Origin: an uncultured Alphaproteobacteria bacterium
Lineage (GTDB): Bacteria; Bacteroidota; Ignavibacteria; Palsa-1295
NCBI GenBank assembly: GCA_964404255.1
Contig: CAYOJJ010000001.1
Span: 243,639-307,638 of the forward strand
Direction of reading: 5' to 3'
DNA: 64,000 nt
Shown here in pieces: positions 2,692 to 50,245 of the stretch (positions are counted from its first letter, which is position 1; every line of letters begins with the position of its first letter). A model generated the notes under the pieces. It searched no databases and was not told the DNA's origin. It was given only the letters and a program-made list of their open reading frames with translations. The position numbers and the translations under genes are program-made.

Positions 2692-3177
2692 TTAATGATT
2701 CGTTATAGCAAATTTACCGATCGGTAACATCTTCCCAAAATGATTGAGTTGGATATAATATACTCCAAATGCAAAACTTGATACATCGAGTGTCAGCTTT
2801 CCTGTTTCAGGTATTAAAGCCTGAAAGACTTCACGCCCTAGCATATCTAAAATATGAATGGGATGCAGCAGATCATTGGATATGACATGGAGCACTGTAG
2901 AAGCAGGATTAGGAAAAATATAGGTCGCATTAACTATCCTCTCATAGGATTCAACATGAGATAGTTTTATTGAGCCTATAGATGTAGTGGCTGTATCTGT
3001 CTTATAATAAATAACTGTACCTGAATCTTGATTAGATAATACCCCAGAACAGACATATAAGATGGTATCCTCAGCGACGGGATGAGTTACCTGCCAGAGA
3101 AATTGTGCTCTTACTCCCACGTAGCTTAGGAGTAAGAGCGCTACAATTAAAAATAATACTCTACTCTTCACAATCAA
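2692..3177 (-). CDS. Small secreted protein with T9SS C-terminal sorting domain (Por secretion tail)
   Basis: Signal peptide MIVKSRVLFLIVALLLLSYVGVRAQ. C-terminal ~80 aa 'YIFPNPASTVLHVISNDL...YYIQL' resembles type-A T9SS CTDs. The region is low-GC. Confidence 0.7.
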   Translation of the reverse strand: MIVKSRVLFLIVALLLLSYVGVRAQFLWQVTHPVAEDTILYVCSGVLSNQDSGTVIYYKTDTATTSIGSIKLSHVESYERIVNATYIFPNPASTVLHVISNDLLHPIHILDMLGREVFQALIPETGKLTLDVSSFAFGVYYIQLNHFGKMLPIGKFAITNH

Positions 3178-3766
3178 ATGTATAGCATTGATTAAGTATC
3201 AATTGTCCATGAGGTTTTAAGCAATGAGTGTTTGGACCGATTACATCATAGCCACTCCATACCACTATTGGTTGATGAGTTATTTCATCACAATCGTACA
3301 TAGAGCTTTTTTCACAATAAGTACCTTCGCTGCATTGATCATATTCATACTCATTCGGTCCTGTCATAACTAATTTCCAGCAGATGGCTCTGTAGACAGC
3401 ACTGTTTATTCTTGCGTTACACGGATCAATAGCAGCCGGAATACTCGAAAGGAAATTAACCGCGTCTTTCATTAAATCCTGAGGATCTATGGGGTCGCAA
3501 TTGGAGTTTAACGGATCCGGAATAATTTGGAAGATAAAATACTGCCATTCGTTGGTTGGGCCTGTAGTAATCTCACGTGAACAAAAATTTACTATATATC
3601 CACAACCAGTAGTGCCATACATCAGATGTCTTGAAGCTGTGGTCCATGGTACAGAAGTAGGTTCTATATCGGTCGGGCATTGAGCTTCGGCTGTTAAAGA
3701 ATAGCCGAAAGACAACACCATCGAAAATAAAACCACCAAGAAGCTGACACGAAGTAAGATTTTCAT
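3161..3766 (-). CDS. Secreted cysteine-rich protein (~14 Cys), function unknown
   Basis: Signal peptide MKILLRVSFLVVLFSMVLSFGYSLTAEA. Many cysteines in CxxxC-like spacing. Overlaps the downstream T9SS-cargo gene by 17 nt on the same strand. AT-rich coding sequence. Confidence 0.6.
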   Translation of the reverse strand: MKILLRVSFLVVLFSMVLSFGYSLTAEAQCPTDIEPTSVPWTTASRHLMYGTTGCGYIVNFCSREITTGPTNEWQYFIFQIIPDPLNSNCDPIDPQDLMKDAVNFLSSIPAAIDPCNARINSAVYRAICWKLVMTGPNEYEYDQCSEGTYCEKSSMYDCDEITHQPIVVWSGYDVIGPNTHCLKPHGQLILNQCYTFDCEE

Positions 3767-34584: not shown

Positions 34585-35091
34585 TTATCGCTTTTCAAAA
34601 TTCAGCGACGCAGAGTTCATGCAATAGCGAAGGCCGGTCGGCTTTGGACCGTCATCGAAGACATGACCAAGGTGAGCGCCGCAATTCGAGCACACTACTT
34701 CCGTACGCTCCATACCATAGCTGTTATCCGATCTATTGACTACCGCTTTTTCATTGATAGGTTTATAAAAACTCGGCCAGCCGGTCCCGGATTCGAACTT
34801 CGTTTTTGAATCGAAGAGCTTCTGCCCGCAGACAATACATGTGTACGTACCGTCTTCATGATTATCCCAGTACTTGCCGGTATACGCTCGCTCGGTGCCT
34901 TGCTCCTGGGTAACGTTATATTGTTCGGGTGTGAGGCGTTTACGTAGTTCGCTTTGGCTGAAGGTTTTGCGCGGCCTGAACTTCATCGAATCGGCAGTAC
35001 TATTTCCTGCAGTAGATTTTCCGCAGGAAGAGGATGATCCAAGTACGGCAATCAAACCGATGATAATGAGTAATACGCGAGTCGCTTTCAT
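34585..35091 (-). CDS. msrB: Peptide-methionine (R)-S-oxide reductase MsrB, lipoprotein (periplasmic) form
   Basis: Lipobox 'GSSSSC'. SelR motifs 'CGWPSF' and '[21 protein letters not shown]'. Confidence 0.9.
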
Positions 35092-35156
35092 ATTCTTATT
35101 AATTTTGTAGTAGATACAACGTCTTATCGTTGCCAGATTTAATAGTACGAGCAGTT

Positions 35157-35819
35157 ATGAAAACAGTTGCAGTCATTCTCTCAGGATGCGGCTACCTCGA
35201 TGGAGCCGAGATCCGCGAATCCGTCGCCACCTTATTGGCGCTTGCCAAACGCAAAGCCACGGTGCATATCTTTGCGCCCGATGCACCACAGACCGTTGTT
35301 ACGAATCACTTAAGTGCGAAAGCTACCCCGGAGACACGTAATATGCTTATCGAAGCAGCCCGCATTGCCCGGGGAAAGATCAGCCCGCTTTCCGAACTTC
35401 CCGATCTCGATTACGATGCCATGATCCTGCCCGGCGGCTTTGGGGTTGCAAAAAACCTTTGTACGTTCGCTAACGATGGCGCTGCCGGCAAGATCCTCTT
35501 TCCCGAACTCGAACGCGATATAAAGGGAATGTATCAGGATGGCAGGCCGATCGGAGCTATTTGCATTTCTCCCGCTCTTATAGCTCTTGCCCTAAAAGGA
35601 GAGAAGCTGGAATTGACCCTTGGCGCCGATAATGGCGCTGCCGACGAAATAAGAAAGCTTGGCCATACCCACATTGTTACTACTCCTTCAGAGATCCATA
35701 TCGACGAAGCCCACAAGATCGTTACGACCCCGGCTTATATGTATGACGATGCCGCGATCGACGAAGTTTTTACCGGTATCGATGCCCTGGTCGAAGCAGT
35801 GCTCTCAATGACGCATTAA
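35157..35819 (+). CDS. elbB: DJ-1/PfpI-family glyoxalase ElbB
   Basis: 'MKTVAVILSGCGYLDGAEIRE' and 'AICISPALIA' match ElbB. The start is at the internal Met of the called ORF. Confidence 0.8.
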   Translation: MKTVAVILSGCGYLDGAEIRESVATLLALAKRKATVHIFAPDAPQTVVTNHLSAKATPETRNMLIEAARIARGKISPLSELPDLDYDAMILPGGFGVAKNLCTFANDGAAGKILFPELERDIKGMYQDGRPIGAICISPALIALALKGEKLELTLGADNGAADEIRKLGHTHIVTTPSEIHIDEAHKIVTTPAYMYDDAAIDEVFTGIDALVEAVLSMTH

Positions 35820-36847
35820 AAATTCTTCGAAGTAAATTCGGGAGCGGCAACTTCGATGGGCGGAAGATCGATAAGATCGAACGCATCGATCTTTTCAAGA
35901 TCGAGTACGCTCGTCCCGTCGTCATCGGTTGAAATAGCCGAGACGAATTTTGCTCCGTAAATAATCTCATTGTGAACGTATGAGCTGCGGGAATAGACCG
36001 TCTGCGAATACGTCTCATCGTACGCTTTAATCTGCACCATCACTTCCGAATCTCCGGCGATGATCTCTTCGCGCGTATAACCGAAGAGCGGGCTGGCTTC
36101 GCTGATTGGATGAACGATCGTCCAACTCGATGCCAGGACACTTACCCGTTGCAATTCCAGCGGCAAGGTATAAAATTTTCTCGATAATCCTCCGCTTTCC
36201 GAAAGCTCATTACGCGAGAGAATCATCAAGGCTTCGAGCTCGATAAGCTGGTTACGCCTGCCATTGGCCAGACGCACCATTACCCCCCGGCCTCCTTTAT
36301 AGGGAGCAACGACGGCTGTCTTACTATAAATAATATTTGCATCCGGATGCGAAAAGCGCCCATATAATAAACCGGTAGCCATCGCAAAAGAAAGCAGGCC
36401 GAGCATTGATTCTATGGCCGCCACCAGGCTCGTTGAAAAACCTACTGGGCTAATACGCCCATAACCGAGGGTCGTCAGTGTTTGAGTACTAAAGAAGAAC
36501 GCTTCGCTGAATTGATCGAAGAAGGTATCGCCGATCATACCATGCAAATGCTCTACCCCGAGCAAATAATAAAGAATGGCAAAAACAAGATTTGTGGCGA
36601 TAAATACAATAAAGAGCATCAGGAAGAACTTGCTCCATCTCATTGTCACGAGCGAGTGAAAAGAGTTATTGAAGAAGTTCTGGCGCTCGCCGATGCGGCG
36701 TACATTAAATGTTCCATCCTGCCGGACCAGGCGTTGGCCACTATAGGTCGGACGCGTACCGAAGCCAAGCTCCGCCGCTTCGGCAGGCTTTTGGCCGTCG
36801 TGTTGTTTTGGGCGCAACAATACTCTATTCTTCGATCGGTAAATCAT
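35816..36847 (-). CDS. Inward-rectifier-type K+ channel (KirBac-like)
   Basis: Selectivity filter 'TTLGYG' between two TMs. The cytoplasmic beta-rich domain 'RLANGRRNQLIE...HPISEASPLFGYT' resembles KirBac1.1 'RAANARQNVIAE...HVIDESSPLFGET'. Confidence 0.85.
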   Translation of the reverse strand: MIYRSKNRVLLRPKQHDGQKPAEAAELGFGTRPTYSGQRLVRQDGTFNVRRIGERQNFFNNSFHSLVTMRWSKFFLMLFIVFIATNLVFAILYYLLGVEHLHGMIGDTFFDQFSEAFFFSTQTLTTLGYGRISPVGFSTSLVAAIESMLGLLSFAMATGLLYGRFSHPDANIIYSKTAVVAPYKGGRGVMVRLANGRRNQLIELEALMILSRNELSESGGLSRKFYTLPLELQRVSVLASSWTIVHPISEASPLFGYTREEIIAGDSEVMVQIKAYDETYSQTVYSRSSYVHNEIIYGAKFVSAISTDDDGTSVLDLEKIDAFDLIDLPPIEVAAPEFTSKNF

Positions 36848-36852
36848 TGTCG

Positions 36853-37263
36853 TTACTTTGCTTCGGTTTCTCCTTCTTTAAAGACAAGCGAGGCGGAATT
36901 GATGCAGTACCGTAAATGTGTGGGCGGCGGCCCGTCATCGAAGACATGGCCAAGATGCGCGCCACAGGTAGCGCAGGTAATTTCTTTACGGTACATTCCG
37001 AAAGATAAATCGACGGATTCTTTAATGGCTACATCCTTCGTCGGCTGGTAAAAACTCGGCCAGCCGCAGCCGGATTCGAATTTTGCTTCCGAGGCAAAAA
37101 GCGGCGTATCGCAGACCACGCAGTGATATATGCCCTTCTTGTGGTTATTCCAATACTCCCCGGTGAAGGCTCGTTCGGTACCTTTTTCCTGGGTCACATG
37201 ATATTGCATCGGCGTCAGGCGCTCTCTGAGCTCCTCATCGCTAAAAATCTTCTTGGTTTCCAT
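36853..37263 (-). CDS. msrB: Peptide-methionine (R)-S-oxide reductase MsrB (cytoplasmic form)
   Basis: 'CGWPSFYQP' and '[24 protein letters not shown]'. No signal peptide. 5 nt upstream of the Kir gene on the same strand. Confidence 0.9.
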
Positions 37264-43523: not shown

Positions 43524-45350
43524 ATGAATTCCTCACGTACGACCATGATGGGCATAGGCCTGATCCTGGTAGTTCTTTTCGGCTGGATGATCTGGAATCA
43601 GCCAAAGCGCGTTCCACCGCCACCGCCGAAACCTGCTGCACCGGCAGCGGTCGATACGGCGAAGCATACCGCCACCCCTGCTCAGGCGCCCGCCGAGCTT
43701 TCTTCAACTGTTTTTCAGGCCGATAGCAGCTCGGCGCCGAGTTCTAAATTCGTCGAAACGCCGCTCGTCAGCGCTGTCGTTTCCTCGCATGGTGGTAACG
43801 TCGTAAGCTGGGTCTTAAAACAGTATAAGACCTTCCAGCATACTCCGCTCGAACTTGTCGATCATAATACTCATTCCGGCGATGTGAATTTGGTCTTCGT
43901 TGCGAGCGATGGTAAGAAAGTCTCGACCAAAGACCTTCATTTCACGATCGAAGATAATAGCCAGAAAACGCTTGGCTACCATGACTCAGTAACGATCCGA
44001 ATGATGGCAACGGTCGATTCGCTCGGCTCGATCGAAAAGCTCATTCGTATTTATTCCGATAAATACCTCCTGCGCGTCGAATATAAGCTTCATAATTTAA
44101 ACTCGAAGATCGCCGGCTACCGGTATACCCTGGCTGTCGATAATCCGATACCTTATAATGAAGCTCATTCCGAAGAAGAGTCTGCTTCGGCCAATGCTGC
44201 TGTGATGACTAAATCTGGTATCGAAACGATCGATGCCAATAAGAACGATAAAGTCGAGCAGAAATCTTTTACCGGCGATGTGGAATTCGTCTCGGCTCGC
44301 ACTAAGTATTTCCTCGGTGCGCTCATCCCCCGCTATCCGCGTCCGGTGGGCAGCGATATTACCGGCACTTCCCATGCTGTTGGCGAGAATGGACGAGTGG
44401 AGAGTTACACGTTGAATGTTTCTATCCCTATCGCTTCACTGGCGAAGGATTCAATGGCAGTCGAGTATTATCTCGGCCCATTGGAATACGATCGTGTTTC
44501 TTCGATCGATCCACCACTTAACGATGTAATGGATTTCGGATGGAGATTCCTCGTTCGCCCGATAAGCGTCTATGTTCTCTTCCCATTCATTATGTGGCTC
44601 CATAGCTTTATTGCTAACTGGGGTCTGGTAATCATCGTCTTCTCGATCGCTGTAAAGCTTGCAACGATGCCCTTCTCCCGCAGCCAGATGGCCGCGATGA
44701 GAAAGATGCAGGCCTTACAGCCGCTGATGAATGACATCCGCGACAAGCACAAAGAGGATCCAAAAAAACAGCAGGAAGAAACCTTTGCGCTTTATAAAAC
44801 ATACGGCGTAAACCCTGCTGGTGGCTGCTTACCATTATTACTGCAGATGCCGGTACTCTTTGCTCTGTATGCAGTGCTTCGTAATGTTATTGAACTTCGC
44901 CAGGCGCCGTTCTTTGGCTGGATCACCGATCTTTCCTTGCCGGATGCACTTATTAAATTTGGTACACATATACCGATCCTCGGCGAACAGCTTTCCGGAC
45001 TTACGTTATTAATGGGCGCTACAATGCTCATTCAGTCGGTCTTTCAGACGACCGATCCGCGCCAGAAGACAATGGCCTACATTATGCCGATCTTCATGAC
45101 GGTGCTCTTTAATAATTTGCCGTCCGGTGTGGCATTGTACTATTTCATGTTCAACCTCTTCGGTATTGCACAGCAGCTCTACAATAAGAAATTCCTGCCG
45201 CCGCTCGATCTCGAAGAATTGAAGAAGAATGCCAAGAATAAAAAAGGCTTCATGTCGAAAATGCAGGAAATGGAAAAAACTGCCCGCGAACAGCGCCAGA
45301 ATGCAATGGCCGGAAAGACTCAGCCACCAAGCCGCAAGAAAAAAGGCTGA
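43524..45350 (+). CDS. yidC: Membrane protein insertase YidC
   Basis: N-terminal TM, a large periplasmic domain, and C-terminal 5-TM core 'WGLVIIVFSIAVKLATMPFS...GGCLPLLLQMPVLFALY' with a positively charged tail. Confidence 0.9.
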   Translation: MNSSRTTMMGIGLILVVLFGWMIWNQPKRVPPPPPKPAAPAAVDTAKHTATPAQAPAELSSTVFQADSSSAPSSKFVETPLVSAVVSSHGGNVVSWVLKQYKTFQHTPLELVDHNTHSGDVNLVFVASDGKKVSTKDLHFTIEDNSQKTLGYHDSVTIRMMATVDSLGSIEKLIRIYSDKYLLRVEYKLHNLNSKIAGYRYTLAVDNPIPYNEAHSEEESASANAAVMTKSGIETIDANKNDKVEQKSFTGDVEFVSARTKYFLGALIPRYPRPVGSDITGTSHAVGENGRVESYTLNVSIPIASLAKDSMAVEYYLGPLEYDRVSSIDPPLNDVMDFGWRFLVRPISVYVLFPFIMWLHSFIANWGLVIIVFSIAVKLATMPFSRSQMAAMRKMQALQPLMNDIRDKHKEDPKKQQEETFALYKTYGVNPAGGCLPLLLQMPVLFALYAVLRNVIELRQAPFFGWITDLSLPDALIKFGTHIPILGEQLSGLTLLMGATMLIQSVFQTTDPRQKTMAYIMPIFMTVLFNNLPSGVALYYFMFNLFGIAQQLYNKKFLPPLDLEELKKNAKNKKGFMSKMQEMEKTAREQRQNAMAGKTQPPSRKKKG

Positions 45351-45374
45351 TCTAAAAAAATCTATTTATAAAAA

Positions 45375-45399
45375 GGCTGGTATATACCGGCCTTTTTTT
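45375..45399. terminator. Rho-independent terminator downstream of yidC (A-tract on left, T-tract on right; possibly bidirectional)
   Basis: 'aaaaaGGCTGGtatataCCGGCCttttttt': a 6-bp GC stem with one G-U pair, then T7. Confidence 0.6.
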
Positions 45400-45406
45400 A
45401 TGTATG

Positions 45407-45865
45407 CTATTTTCTATACTGGATAAGAATGCTTAGCGAGCGATCCTTCGTATATTCAAGCTCAATAGCATAAGAATTCATGGTGAAGCAAGTCTTTGTA
45501 GGTACTTTCTGTCTGACCCTCTTATAACGATTATCAAGAACCGTAACGAGAGAATCAAATAGTTGTGTTGTGGCGGAATCTGAACTCCAGGAAAAACGAT
45601 CGAGTATATTATTTTTCTCAAATACCGATAGCATATATCTCCCGCCGATTTTAAACCAACGAACCGCATCCTGAAAAAAAAGTAGGTCTGGGTTTCCCGT
45701 AGAATACCAGTGTTTTACCGTTAGAGTCGTTAAAATCTCCTTGTGCAATAGGTGTAACGGTTTCTATTTTTTTGGAATCACATCTAATGTAAAGGCTACA
45801 TCATCCGAGTACCTGTCGGAGCAAAAACATAGCGCCCCTATTAAATATATAATTACTAATTTCAT
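45407..45865 (-). pseudogene. Exported protein gene interrupted by in-frame TAG (45764-45766)
   Basis: The ATG at 45865 gives MKLVIIYLIGALCFCSDRYSDDVAFTLDVIPKK, then TAG. The same frame continues '..KPLHL(L)HKEILTTLTVKHWYSTGN...' to 45407. The called ORF 45407-45748 starts at TTG in that frame. AT-rich. Confidence 0.45.
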
Positions 45866-45889
45866 TATTAAAGACTATTCTTCAAATAT

Positions 45890-45906
45890 AGCACTTAGTA
45901 AGTGCT
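45890..45906. promoter_or_regulatory. 17-bp perfect palindrome AGCACTTAgTAAGTGCT about 40 bp upstream of mnmE
   Basis: Read directly from the sequence: 8-bp arms and a 1-nt centre. Lies in the AT-rich leader. Confidence 0.4.
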
Positions 45907-45946
45907 GACACCCTACTATTAGTAATCGTGTTCTTGTTAAGCTACA

Positions 45947-47242
45947 ATGTCGCTTACAACGCTGACTGATACGATCTGCGCGCTTTCTACCCCGCTTGGT
46001 ACGAGTGCGCTAGCAACGCTCCGGCTTTCCGGTGCGGATGCGATCGTTATTGCTGCAAAATGCTTGCAATCACCTGAGCGTCTCATTACTGCACTTGGTG
46101 GTGAATCTATTTATTCCACTATTAAAGATATTACGGGCGGACATATCGATGATGTCGTGCTTTCGGTCTGGAGAGCGCCGCGTTCGTATACCGGCGAGGA
46201 CATTGTTGAATTTCATACCCATGGTTCTCCGGTCATAACCGATCTCTTGCAAAGGCAGCTCATCGCCCATGGGGCGCGGCTTGCAGAGGCAGGCGAGTTT
46301 TCGCGCCGGGCCTTTATGAATGGTAAGCAATCGCTGCAGGAGCTGGAGCGAACGCTAATGAGGCTCGATGCATCGAGCGAGGATTCGCTTTCGAAAATAG
46401 AGCCATTATTGCAAGCAAAGTTTGATAGATTACGCGAAGTATATGACGATTGCATTTCATTACTTGCGCAGGTAAATGCAGAAATAGATTTTGGTGAATC
46501 AGATCAGGTGGAGCTTTCGGGATTCGCTGCACAGATGGGAGCCATACGCCACAAGCTTTCCGAGCTTGTGGCCCGATCGGTAAATCAGCAATTAAATAAA
46601 GGCTATTTTTCTGTTGTGCTCACAGGGCCGCCGAACGTCGGCAAGAGCAGTCTCTTTAATGCTCTTATTCGCTATGAGCGCAGCATCGTCAGCGATATTG
46701 CCGGTACGACCCGCGATTACATCGAAGCCTTTGTGATGCTTGAGGGGTTTAAAGTGAAGATCATCGATACGGCGGGGTTAAGGGACTCGGCAGATTCTAT
46801 CGAAAGCCGGGGTATCGCCCTCGGAAAAGATATTGCAGAAAAGGCTGATATTGAGCTTCGTATGACCGACCCTGCAACGAGATCCGTGCGTGCAGCAACC
46901 GGACAAATTCTTGTTCATAATAAGTGCGATCTCGATGGATTTAGCGATGGCATTGCTATATCCACGGTAACCGGTCAGGGAATGAAAGAGCTTATATCAT
47001 TGATAAAGAATGAGATAGCTGCTATTGACCAGGGACGTACCAGCTATAACATAGCTGAAACGGAACTTGCCACGATAGAATCGGTTCGGCAAAGACTCAA
47101 TAATTCATTGATAAACAAAGAGTTATCCTTAATTGCCGAAGATCTTCGCTTTTCGGCCGATGCCATTGCATCGTTGCTTGGGTTTCGCATTACAGATGAT
47201 AATTTAAATTATATTTTTACAAAAATGTGTATTGGTAAATAA
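45947..47242 (+). CDS. mnmE: tRNA modification GTPase MnmE
   Basis: N-terminal 'TICALSTPLGTSALATLRLSG'. G-domain 'GPPNVGKSSLFNAL' and 'DTAGLR'. C-terminal 'CIGK'. Confidence 0.9.
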   Translation: MSLTTLTDTICALSTPLGTSALATLRLSGADAIVIAAKCLQSPERLITALGGESIYSTIKDITGGHIDDVVLSVWRAPRSYTGEDIVEFHTHGSPVITDLLQRQLIAHGARLAEAGEFSRRAFMNGKQSLQELERTLMRLDASSEDSLSKIEPLLQAKFDRLREVYDDCISLLAQVNAEIDFGESDQVELSGFAAQMGAIRHKLSELVARSVNQQLNKGYFSVVLTGPPNVGKSSLFNALIRYERSIVSDIAGTTRDYIEAFVMLEGFKVKIIDTAGLRDSADSIESRGIALGKDIAEKADIELRMTDPATRSVRAATGQILVHNKCDLDGFSDGIAISTVTGQGMKELISLIKNEIAAIDQGRTSYNIAETELATIESVRQRLNNSLINKELSLIAEDLRFSADAIASLLGFRITDDNLNYIFTKMCIGK

Positions 47243-47286
47243 ATAGGATATATTTATTTACTATTTATACATTATAATCAGACAAC

Positions 47287-47300
47287 GTTCCACGTGGAAC
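47287..47300. promoter_or_regulatory. 14-bp perfect palindrome GTTCCACGTGGAAC overlapping the GTG start of mnmG
   Basis: Read from the sequence. The core TTCCACGTGGAA recurs only at 49116-49127. Confidence 0.5.
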
Positions 47301-49114
47301 ATTACATTGCAGATATTATAGTGGTTGGTGGCGGCCATGCCGGTATTGAGGCAGCGGCTGCAGCTTACCGTATGGGGCTGAAGGTCCGGCTCCTGAGTCT
47401 GCACGCCGATAAAGTTGGAGAGCTTTCCTGCAATCCCGCAATAGGTGGTACTGCAAAAGGTCAGGTTGTTAAGGAAATAGATGCACTGGGCGGGCTCATG
47501 GGTAGGATTACCGATGAAGCCGGCTTGCACTTTAGAATGCTTAACCGTTCTAAAGGCCCGGCTATTTGGTCTCCACGGGCTCAGGTTTCGAGGAGCCAGT
47601 ATCCCTTAATTGCTCAGCGAGTACTAAAAGAGTTAGACCCCGAAATGATCCTCGAAGCAAACGTCCAGAAAATCTGGATAGAGCAGGGGACAGTAAAGGG
47701 AGTCGTTCTTTCCGATGGTACCAAGTATGGGGCAAAGGCTGTAATTATCTGTGCCGGTACCTTTCTCAATGGGGTAATGCATACCGGCCTTACCAAGACC
47801 ATTGGTGGCCGATACGGCGAAGAACCAACCAGCTTAAGAACTGAGCCGGAAGGTGCACTTTCCCTCGTATCATATCGGCTTAAGACGGGGACTCCTCCCA
47901 GAATTTCTCTTAAGAGTATCGATACTGCCTCCCTTGAAATACAGGAAGGCGATCCTAATCCCGTAGCTTTTTCTTCCAAGACCACCTCCGAAGTAGCTAA
48001 TAAGATCCATTGCTACATCACCTATACCTCAGAGGTAACTCATAACGAGCTTGCCAAAGGCTTTGCCGAATCTCCAATGTTTACGGGGAAGATCCAGGGC
48101 AAAGGACCCCGGTATTGCCCCTCGATCGAAGATAAGGTAACCCGTTTTCCGGATAAGCTCCAGCACCATCTCTTCCTTGAACCAGAGGAAGAAGATGGAA
48201 ATGTGGTCTATGTCAATGGATTTTCTACCAGTCTGCCGGCTGAAGTTCAGGTAGCTGCGCTGAAGACAGTGCCCGGTCTTGAAAATGTGGTAATGCTCAG
48301 ACCAGGCTATGCTGTCGAGTATGATTACTTCCCGGCCTTTCAGCTATATCATACCCTTGAATCTAAATCTGTCTCCGGGCTTTACTTTGCCGGTCAGGTA
48401 AATGGCACTTCAGGTTATGAGGAAGCCGGCGCTCAGGGATTGGTAGCCGGAGTAAATGCTGCGGCTAAGCTAAAAGGCTTACCTGAATTTATCCTTGGCA
48501 GGGACGAAGCTTATATAGGGGTACTGGTTGACGATCTTATTAATAAAGTGCAGGAAGAACCCTACCGTCTTTTTACTGCCAGTGCCGAGCATCGGCTAAT
48601 CCTCAGGCAGGATAATGCCGATATCCGTCTCAGTAAAAAAGCTTATGAATATGGTCTTATCGATCATGAGACCTATACTGAAGTCTGTAATAAAAAAGAA
48701 TCAATAGATAAGCTTATCTATTGGACTGAGACTACCAGGGTACCCTCGTTACAAAATGCTGAGCTTAAGCAGAGCATAAAAGCCCAGATGGTTTCCGGAG
48801 GTATATCTATAGAGAAGTACTTAGCAGAACTGGAGAATCCTTTTAATGATCTTAACCAAGCCGTTCTTGAAGGAGCGTCCATCGAGATCAAGTACGAAGG
48901 TTATATTAAGCAGCATAGGAACCAGATCGAGCGGATGCATATCCAGGAGCAGAAAAAAATACCCCATAGTTTTTCTTTCAGATCGCTTAAAGCGTTGAGC
49001 AGCGAAGCACGGGAAATTCTTGAAAAAGTGCGACCAGAGACAATAGGGCAAGCATCACGTTTGCCGGGTGTGGCTCCAACCGATCTAACCATCCTGATCG
49101 GATCACTTAAATAA
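47294..49114 (+). CDS. mnmG: tRNA uridine-5-carboxymethylaminomethyl synthesis enzyme MnmG (GidA)
   Basis: FAD-binding '[15 protein letters not shown]'. Conserved '[20 protein letters not shown]' and 'GxAPTDL' C-terminus. Confidence 0.9.
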
Positions 49115-49128
49115 TTTCCACGTGGAAA
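49115..49128. promoter_or_regulatory. 14-bp perfect palindrome TTTCCACGTGGAAA 1 nt after the mnmG stop
   Basis: Read from the sequence. Shares its 12-bp core with the palindrome at the mnmG start. Confidence 0.5.
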
Positions 49129-49162
49129 ATAAAAGTTAAAAGAACAAATAATTATATAGTTT

Positions 49163-50071
49163 ATGTCAGAGCTTTTTAACGAGCTTAATTCTCTTTCTAC
49201 CGAGCAGCGCAACCCCAGATCGATGAATCTTGATTCGATGACAACCAGACAGATCCTCGAATTAATAAACGATGAAGATGCAAAGGTAGCAATGGCGGTA
49301 CGAGTAGAGCTTCCCTACATCGAACGTGTGGTCGAGCGGCTGGTAAGCGTTCTTGGAAATGGCGGCCGTCTGTTCTATGTCGGCGCCGGGACGAGCGGCA
49401 GAATGGGTGTGATCGATGCGGCTGAGTGTCCGCCTACGTTCGGTACCAGCCCCGCCCAGATCCAGGCAATTATAGCCGGCGGCAAAGACGCCGTCTTCCG
49501 TTCTCAGGAAGGAGCGGAGGATAATGCTGAAAAAGGGGCGCTTGAAATTGCCCTGCAGCGCTGCAGTGAAAAAGATATGGTCATCGGTATTGCGGCGAGC
49601 AAGCGCACTCCGTTCGTCCTTGGCGCTCTGAAGAAGGCGTCAGAACTAGGCTCCGCGGCAGTGCTCATTACTACGAACCCAAGAGAATCGGTCGATACCG
49701 GTTATCTTTTCGAAGCGATCTGCCCCGTTGTCGGTCCGGAAGTACTGATGGGATCTACAAGAATGAAATCGGCAGTGGCGCAAAAGATGATCCTAACCAT
49801 GGTCACAACGACGACAATGGTACGGCTTGGAAAAGTCTATGAAAATATGATGGTCGATCTCCAGCTTACCAATCAAAAATTAGCAGAACGGGCGAAGAAA
49901 ATCATTATGATCGCTACCGGAGTTGAATACGAAAAAGCAGCAGAACTCTTAAAAGCAAGCGGCAACCACGTAAAAAGCGCGATTGTAATGCATTATAAAG
50001 GAGTCACGGTAAACGAAGCAAAACAACTCATCGCCAATTCGAATGGTTTTGTACGTGGGGCAATGAGCTAA
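49163..50071 (+). CDS. murQ: N-acetylmuramic acid 6-phosphate etherase
   Basis: SIS-domain motifs 'GRLFYVGAGTSGRMGVIDAAECPPTFG' and 'GSTRMKSAVAQKMILTMV'. Confidence 0.9.
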   Translation: MSELFNELNSLSTEQRNPRSMNLDSMTTRQILELINDEDAKVAMAVRVELPYIERVVERLVSVLGNGGRLFYVGAGTSGRMGVIDAAECPPTFGTSPAQIQAIIAGGKDAVFRSQEGAEDNAEKGALEIALQRCSEKDMVIGIAASKRTPFVLGALKKASELGSAAVLITTNPRESVDTGYLFEAICPVVGPEVLMGSTRMKSAVAQKMILTMVTTTTMVRLGKVYENMMVDLQLTNQKLAERAKKIIMIATGVEYEKAAELLKASGNHVKSAIVMHYKGVTVNEAKQLIANSNGFVRGAMS

Positions 50072-50245
50072 GTCCTTCTAATAAAGAAAATATCCACAGG
50101 TTTGTCTCCCCATTTTATTGATAACTCGGTATTTGGATTATTTCCAAGGTTATCCACTTTCTGCGTGCAACTTTGGGATTTATGCCGTGTTGAAATAAAT
50201 AAGGAAGTATTCTTCAAACTTTAACTAAAGCTATCCTAACTTAAG

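Follow-up and report, generated by a model that had tools for sequence, protein, structure and literature searches.

Predicted chromosomal parS sites at the two ends of mnmG, intact upstream and degenerate downstream, in an uncultured Kapaibacterium-like bacterium

Background

In the chromosome partitioning systems that have been studied, ParB (Spo0J) nucleates on parS sites, closes into clamps with CTP, spreads along the DNA, is moved by ParA and loads SMC (PMC7333895, PMC13438810). A single good parS site is often enough (PMC7333895). Here we consider two short palindromes that bracket mnmG (gidA), one on its start codon and one directly after its stop codon, in a stretch of 64,000 nucleotides from an uncultured bacterium (contig CAYOJJ010000001.1, positions 243,639 to 307,638). 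This whole stretch is called the window below, and positions are those of the window. We think it very probable that both palindromes are parS sites of the chromosome, the upstream one intact and the downstream one degenerate, and ParB binding is predicted from their sequence and its conservation.

The published parS consensus TGTTNCACGTGAAACA is listed for Bacillus subtilis, Corynebacterium and others (PMC7022226), and ParB biochemistry uses TGTTCCACGTGAAACA as the standard parS of B. subtilis. B. subtilis has 10 sites for Spo0J, eight of them in the ori domain. The window resembles this system in the 16-bp inverted-repeat architecture, the CACGTG centre, the GTTNCAC arms, a low copy number within the 64 kb and a neighbourhood of classically ori-linked genes. 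It differs in that its site has the GTTCCAC variant in both arms, in that one site lies on a start codon, and in that parAB is not near and ParB binding is predicted. The Myxococcus xanthus consensus TGTTCCACGTGGAACG includes the 12-mer common to our two palindromes, TTCCACGTGGAA, exactly (PMC7022226), and positions 5 and 12 are likewise a symmetric C/G pair. However, Myxococcus has 22 sites, with a large cluster near parAB, whereas the window has two sites around mnmG and no parAB.

The GTTCCAC arm is shared with Pseudomonas aeruginosa, which has parS1-4 and GTTCCAC half-sites. Chromatin immunoprecipitation sequencing in that species found the first base of the GtTcCAc half-site, a G, to be strictly conserved, and each mismatch lowers affinity (PMC5961200). 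Unlike the sites described here, those of P. aeruginosa lie 10-20 kb from gidAB-parAB and not at the borders of gidA. A comparison can also be made with NBS (ATTTCCCGGGAAAT), the site of the Firmicute-specific paralogue Noc. Like NBS, our downstream site has no G at position 1 of its 14-bp core; unlike NBS, it retains CACGTG, the centre of the parS type with its A at position 6, and at position 1 it has T where NBS has A. No sign of a Noc-type protein was found here.

A literature search returned no paper on parS at mnmG borders, nor on ParB/parS in Ignavibacteriota or Kapabacteria; the survey of Livny et al. 2007 (J Bacteriol 189:8693), reportedly the key one on parS distribution and known to us through reviews only, was outside its coverage.

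Results

Two palindromes around one gene

There are exactly two copies of the 12-mer TTCCACGTGGAA in the 64 kb. One copy (47288-47299) spans the GTG start of mnmG and the other (49116-49127) lies directly 3' of its stop. Each is the core of a perfect 14-bp palindrome. The right half of the upstream palindrome, GTTCCACGTGGAAC (47287-47300), provides the GTG start codon itself (47294-47296), and the first base of the downstream one, TTTCCACGTGGAAA (49115-49128), follows directly on the TAA stop (49112-49114). The original prediction, made by a reader of the letters of the window, had described both palindromes at these positions and had found the 12-mer nowhere else; both observations hold, and all 100 dinucleotide-preserving shuffles of the window contain zero exact copies. 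When up to two mismatches are allowed there are five matches in the window against 1.99 expected, the remaining three being unrelated. The pairing of the 12-mer around mnmG is far beyond chance. The central CACGTG hexamer shows no enrichment in the window (4 observed against 7.9 expected), so the signal resides in the whole palindrome; GTTYCAC half-sites, with seven copies in the window, are in no apparent excess either.

A parS site is taken as a 16-bp inverted repeat matching TGTTNCACGTGNAACA, with up to two mismatches tolerated in common practice (PMC10197239). The upstream site, CGTTCCACGTGGAACA, has one mismatch and counts as a parS by this measure; the downstream site, ATTTCCACGTGGAAAA, has three and by itself does not. 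These two, 1.8 kb apart, are the only sites in the window with three mismatches or fewer to the 16-mer, all others having at least four.

Conservation of the sites at mnmG

With the MnmG of the window as query we collected 80 loci from species-representative genomes and looked at 10 kb of flank. The closest of them come from metagenome-assembled genomes (MAGs) of Candidatus Kapaibacterium, at 63-74% amino-acid identity, and the remainder from Ignavibacteriota, Bacteroidota, Calditrichota, Zixibacteria, Nitrospira and others. A second set of 80 metagenome loci was fetched independently, bringing the total to 160 mnmG loci; the metagenome scan found no sequence closer than 73% amino-acid identity. 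Sites were counted if they had no more than two mismatches to the 16-mer, and were called near if they lay within 150 nt of the mnmG start or stop.

A parS-like site is present near the mnmG start in 126 of the 160 loci and near the stop in 81. In the genome loci the counts are 71 at the start, 41 at the stop and 36 at both. Near the ends of mnmG these loci have 135 sites in 47.9 kb, or 2.82 per kb, and in the remaining 1.42 Mb they have 26, or 0.018 per kb. The metagenome loci reproduce this result, with 55 at the start, 40 at the stop and 25 at both, and 2.27 per kb near the ends against 0.038 elsewhere. Over 2.5 Mb of relatives' loci, parS-like sites are hence 60-150 times denser at the ends of mnmG than elsewhere. 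The exact 12-mer is found in 18 of the 80 genome loci, nearly always at one end of mnmG, and its flanks in these relatives extend to a full 16-mer, TGTTCCACGTGGAACA or TGTTCCACGTGAAACA. The original prediction had named the mnmG flanks of close relatives as the place where the motif might turn out to be absent; it is present there across several phyla.

The spacers around mnmG in the Kapaibacterium clade are AT-rich and poorly conserved outside the palindrome. Within the upstream spacer, which varies, TTCCACGTGGAACA is invariant in seven of seven aligned sequences of the clade, and the downstream core CCACGTGGAA is invariant in the clade as well. Judged by this alignment, an invariant palindrome in variable spacers is a classic phylogenetic footprint, and the upstream site is under strong purifying selection. 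In this clade parS is fused to the mnmG start codon, and no start other than the GTG within the palindrome is conserved throughout. Hence the first three codons of mnmG (GTG GAA CAY/CAR) are under dual constraint.

Two Nitrospira loci (L077 and L079) have the same 16-mers about 100 nt 3' of mnmG and again just upstream of parA-parB, whose products carry ParA-type ATPase domains in the one case and ParB_N, HTH_ParB and ParB_C domains in the other. This is the textbook layout mnmG-(rsmG)-parA-parB with its parS sites. A Zixibacteria locus (L069) also has parA-parB adjoining mnmG. In the loci of the Fibrobacterota-Chlorobiota-Bacteroidota (FCB) group, parAB is not within 10 kb of mnmG, yet parS is still found at mnmG.

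Several variations among the relatives may be mentioned. Seven Melioribacter-type loci (L027, L030, L033, L037, L046, L052 and L056) carry a parS variant, TGTTTCATGTGAAACA, with the asymmetric centre CATGTG in place of CACGTG, mostly as a pair upstream of mnmG; the target of ParB may have shifted in this lineage. Three to four tandem parS-like sites stand directly upstream of mnmG in L065 (8562-8679, spacing about 34 bp) and in L040 (1715-1804, spacing 36-38 bp). In L028 (11347), L029 (11356) and L059 (8852) a parS lies within the mnmG coding region at a fixed place, about +1375 nt and 500 nt before the stop, where it replaces or supplements the downstream intergenic site.

The two sites are not equal

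The upstream site has GTTCCAC in both arms, so that each 7-bp arm has its G at position 1. The downstream site has TTTCCAC in both arms, that is, G2 of the 16-mer has become T and C15 has become A. In the co-crystal of Caulobacter ParB with parS, the invariant arginine R173 hydrogen-bonds this "guanine 1" of the arm, which is also one of the two positions that distinguish parS from NBS (PMC7383237). Among the 131 sites with the 12-bp core TTYCACGTGRAA in the 80 genome loci, G2 is kept in 117 and C15 in 126, and none has lost both.

The change of C15 to A is common to the three closest sequences, namely the window, L001 and L081, while their left arms differ; the downstream variants are ATTTCCAC, TGTGCCAC and TGTTCCAC. 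Because of this combination we read the downstream site as probably a second parS that is eroding in this sub-lineage and is now weak or decaying. Its perfect 14-bp symmetry would then probably be a coincidence of two independent changes. The downstream site may still be weakly bound by ParB.

Genes around the sites

All 58 substantial open reading frames (ORFs) of the window were scanned against Pfam. The genes next to the palindromes are listed with the sites in Table 1.

Table 1. Positions of the two sites and of the genes around them in the window
Feature	Position	Strand	Description
yidC	43524..45350	+	Pfam 60KD_IMP, YidC_periplas
mnmE (trmE)	45947..47242	+	Pfam TrmE_N, MMR_HSR1, MnmE_helical; upstream neighbour of mnmG
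Upstream parS site (predicted)	47286..47301	.	CGTTCCACGTGGAACA; 15/16 vs TGTTNCACGTGNAACA; 14-bp core a perfect palindrome; overlaps mnmG GTG
mnmG/gidA	47294..49114	+	606-codon ORF; Pfam GIDA (2.9e-143) and GIDA C-terminal domains; bracketed by both sites
Downstream degenerate parS-like site	49114..49129	.	ATTTCCACGTGGAAAA; 13/16 vs TGTTNCACGTGNAACA; 12-bp core whole
murQ-like SIS-domain gene	49163..50071	+	Pfam SIS, GKRP_SIS_N; downstream neighbour of mnmG

The order in the window is bacA(-) / yidC - small ORF(-) - mnmE - mnmG - murQ-like - ECF sigma. The spacer between mnmE and mnmG is 51 nt long and contains the left arm of the upstream parS; the downstream site is located in the 48-nt spacer before the murQ-like gene. 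Among the relatives, mnmE is upstream of mnmG in 115 of the 160 loci, and murQ is downstream in 69, including all eight Kapaibacterium-type loci.

The gene organisation of origin regions is conserved, with gidAB-parAB linked to oriC (PMC13438810). The group yidC-mnmE-mnmG is a classical origin-linked one. In the window, genes flip at about 43.4 kb from the minus to the plus strand, and the minimum of the cumulative GC skew is at about 44-46 kb; both fit and suggest that the parS region is origin-proximal, although over 64 kb the skew is a weak guide, since it is confounded with gene strand.

The interval at this skew minimum, 45350-45946 between yidC and mnmE, is an AT-rich gap of about 600 bp with no consensus DnaA boxes. 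It holds a strong intrinsic terminator after yidC (45370-45397, with a 12-bp stem) and a single ORF (45407-45748, minus strand) of 113 amino acids with no Pfam match and an atypical composition (GC 0.39). In the spacer between the murQ-like gene and the ECF sigma factor gene there are two one-mismatch DnaA boxes, ATATCCACA (50090-50098) and TTATCCACT (50150-50158), 60 bp apart; they are the sole paired DnaA-box-like sequences in the window.

Further from the sites, two paralogous MsrB (SelR) genes (34585-35091 and 36853-37263, both on the minus strand) lie on either side of an inward-rectifier-type K+ channel gene (35816-36847) and of an ORF of 229 amino acids without a Pfam match (35130-35819). 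Two low-GC ORFs at 2692-3766 on the minus strand (GC 0.375-0.40) have the most deviant codon usage of the window and may have been acquired recently; one of them carries Por_Secre_tail, the C-terminal sorting domain of type IX secretion.

Discussion

A probable partition site and how it would work

Of the two palindromes, the one at 47286-47301 is most likely a functional site for ParB nucleation and CTP clamp loading, by analogy with the systems described in the Background. If so, events in this organism, from the binding of ParB through the loading of clamps to segregation, would follow familiar lines. ParB dimers would nucleate on the upstream parS. CTP binding would close them into sliding clamps, which would leave parS and spread along the neighbouring DNA. 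ParA would move the resulting nucleoprotein complex, which may in addition load SMC, so that newly replicated origin-proximal regions would be separated and organised. The downstream site would have descended from the second parS that relatives have 3' of mnmG, having lost the outer G/C in both arms.

Some observations weigh against this. No gene for ParA, ParB or SMC is found in the window (Pfam on the 58 ORFs, and phmmer), and a cognate ParB in the host genome is an assumption, the search having covered the 64-kb window only. The window also has no dnaA gene among its 58 ORFs and no cluster of DnaA boxes (eight one-mismatch boxes in 64 kb). Finally, the three mismatches of the downstream site fall at positions important for ParB, and ParB may fail to bind there altogether.

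A further suggestion can be made, namely that the bracketing of mnmG is itself functional. ParB at the upstream site, which spans the start codon and probably the point where transcription begins, could repress or roadblock mnmG, tying the expression of this tRNA-modification enzyme to the partition complex or to the replication cycle, or else the paired sites could delimit a loop bridged by ParB. The basis for this is that sites lie within tens of nucleotides of the mnmG start and stop across Ignavibacteriota, Bacteroidota, Calditrichota and others, also in loci whose 10 kb of flank has no parAB. ParB bound at the intergenic parS3 and parS4 of P. aeruginosa represses adjacent promoters (PMC5521831). 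Since parS here sits on the start codon and there is no terminator-like site between mnmE and mnmG, one may speculate that ParB could dampen mnmG expression. Nevertheless, we regard a function of the bracketing as improbable. As such parS is well known, and the site pair described here is an ordinary feature rather than a new regulatory element.

What else the palindromes might be

The original prediction had suggested paired operators for a dimeric regulator, possibly with looping. Part of this agrees with the parS identity, which also implies sites for a dimeric DNA-binding protein and possible bridging of DNA; what does not stand is a pair of operators specific to the gene. A dedicated dimeric transcription factor other than ParB that regulates mnmG, possibly by looping, would account for two sites bracketing a single gene and for the operator-like position of the upstream one, on the start codon and 8 nt 3' of a perfect TATAAT hexamer (47273-47278). 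Transcription beginning at the edge of parS may indeed give a nearly leaderless mnmG mRNA. However, the TATAAT is not conserved in Kapaibacterium relatives, the sequence, which is found across phyla, shows identity to parS over 14-16 bp, and in Nitrospira the 16-mer also precedes parA. Relatives have one to four copies at variable spacing, after stop codons or even inside the mnmG coding region. The motif is thus not confined to the promoters of a regulon, and the only regulator gene adjacent is that of the ECF sigma factor 1.1 kb downstream. We consider such an operator pair very unlikely. An even less probable idea places the element in RNA: each palindrome would form a small hairpin acting in translation control or as a terminator, or the 5' and 3' copies would pair and circularise the mnmG mRNA. 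Both copies are probably transcribed and, being palindromic and identical over 12 nt, could pair. Yet the hairpins are weak, on a par with those of shuffled sequence (-6.2 kcal/mol, z = -1.35, upstream; -4.4 kcal/mol, z = -0.92, downstream). A promoter and terminator scan, in which the number of sites in the window was not above that in shuffled sequence, gave no terminator or T-run at the downstream site. An Rfam scan of 43-51 kb gave no match at the palindromes and only sub-threshold matches at the yidC terminator. What relatives conserve is sequence and not pairing: of 102 good sites, 26 have bases at positions 5 and 12 that are not complementary (C/A in 18 of them), with no compensatory variation, which points to a protein reading a degenerate position and not to a hairpin. 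About half of the loci, moreover, have one site only.

Identical repeats at both ends of a gene also bring to mind mobile DNA or site-specific recombination, whether as att-like sites or as repeats left by insertion, inversion or excision of mnmG, and the original prediction had listed an ancient event of this kind. Its remark that mnmG seems to use more A/T-ending and AGG/AGA codons than nearby genes could be taken in the same sense. The comparison of codon usage bears out the direction of that remark and little of its size. The GC content at third codon positions is 0.448 in mnmG against a mean of 0.509 +/- 0.064 (z = -0.96, eighth lowest of 58 ORFs), nearly equal to the 0.453 of the neighbouring mnmE. 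AGA and AGG make up 11 of its 27 arginine codons against 150 of 917 (16%) in the other ORFs (rank 5 of 58), with an uncorrected Fisher p of 0.003, which is no longer significant after Bonferroni correction over the 58 ORFs (0.0027 x 58 = ~0.16). The excess is real but modest, and with rank 23 of 58 in overall codon-usage distance mnmG is no outlier. Each of the eight Kapaibacterium-type loci keeps the order mnmE-mnmG-murQ (the 115 loci given above keep mnmE-mnmG), no integrase or transposase adjoins mnmG among the ORFs scanned with Pfam, and the sites persist across phylum-level divergence. This synteny and the ordinary codon usage contradict an insertion, and a recombination footprint is in our opinion as improbable as the RNA element. 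Least credible of all is a motif of a dispersed kind, such as a target of restriction-modification or methylation, a DNA uptake sequence or a repeat, that came to lie beside mnmG by chance. CACGTG does resemble a typical type II recognition palindrome, but the hexamer is not enriched, the 12-mer is missing from the rest of the 64 kb, and in relatives the parS-like sites are concentrated at the ends of mnmG to the degree reported above.

Meaning of the sites

If the two palindromes are parS sites, as we think very probable, they show where the partition (centromere) locus lies in an uncultured genome of Kapaibacterium-like type, and probably also where its origin-proximal domain is. Knowing the place of parS is of help in orienting MAG assemblies and in predicting oriC. 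Most of the 160 loci have such sites at the mnmG borders, including lineages in which parAB is more than 10 kb away, so that within the FCB group the flanks of mnmG are a reliable place to seek parS. An intact upstream site next to a probably eroding downstream one would also be a small natural example of parS turnover.

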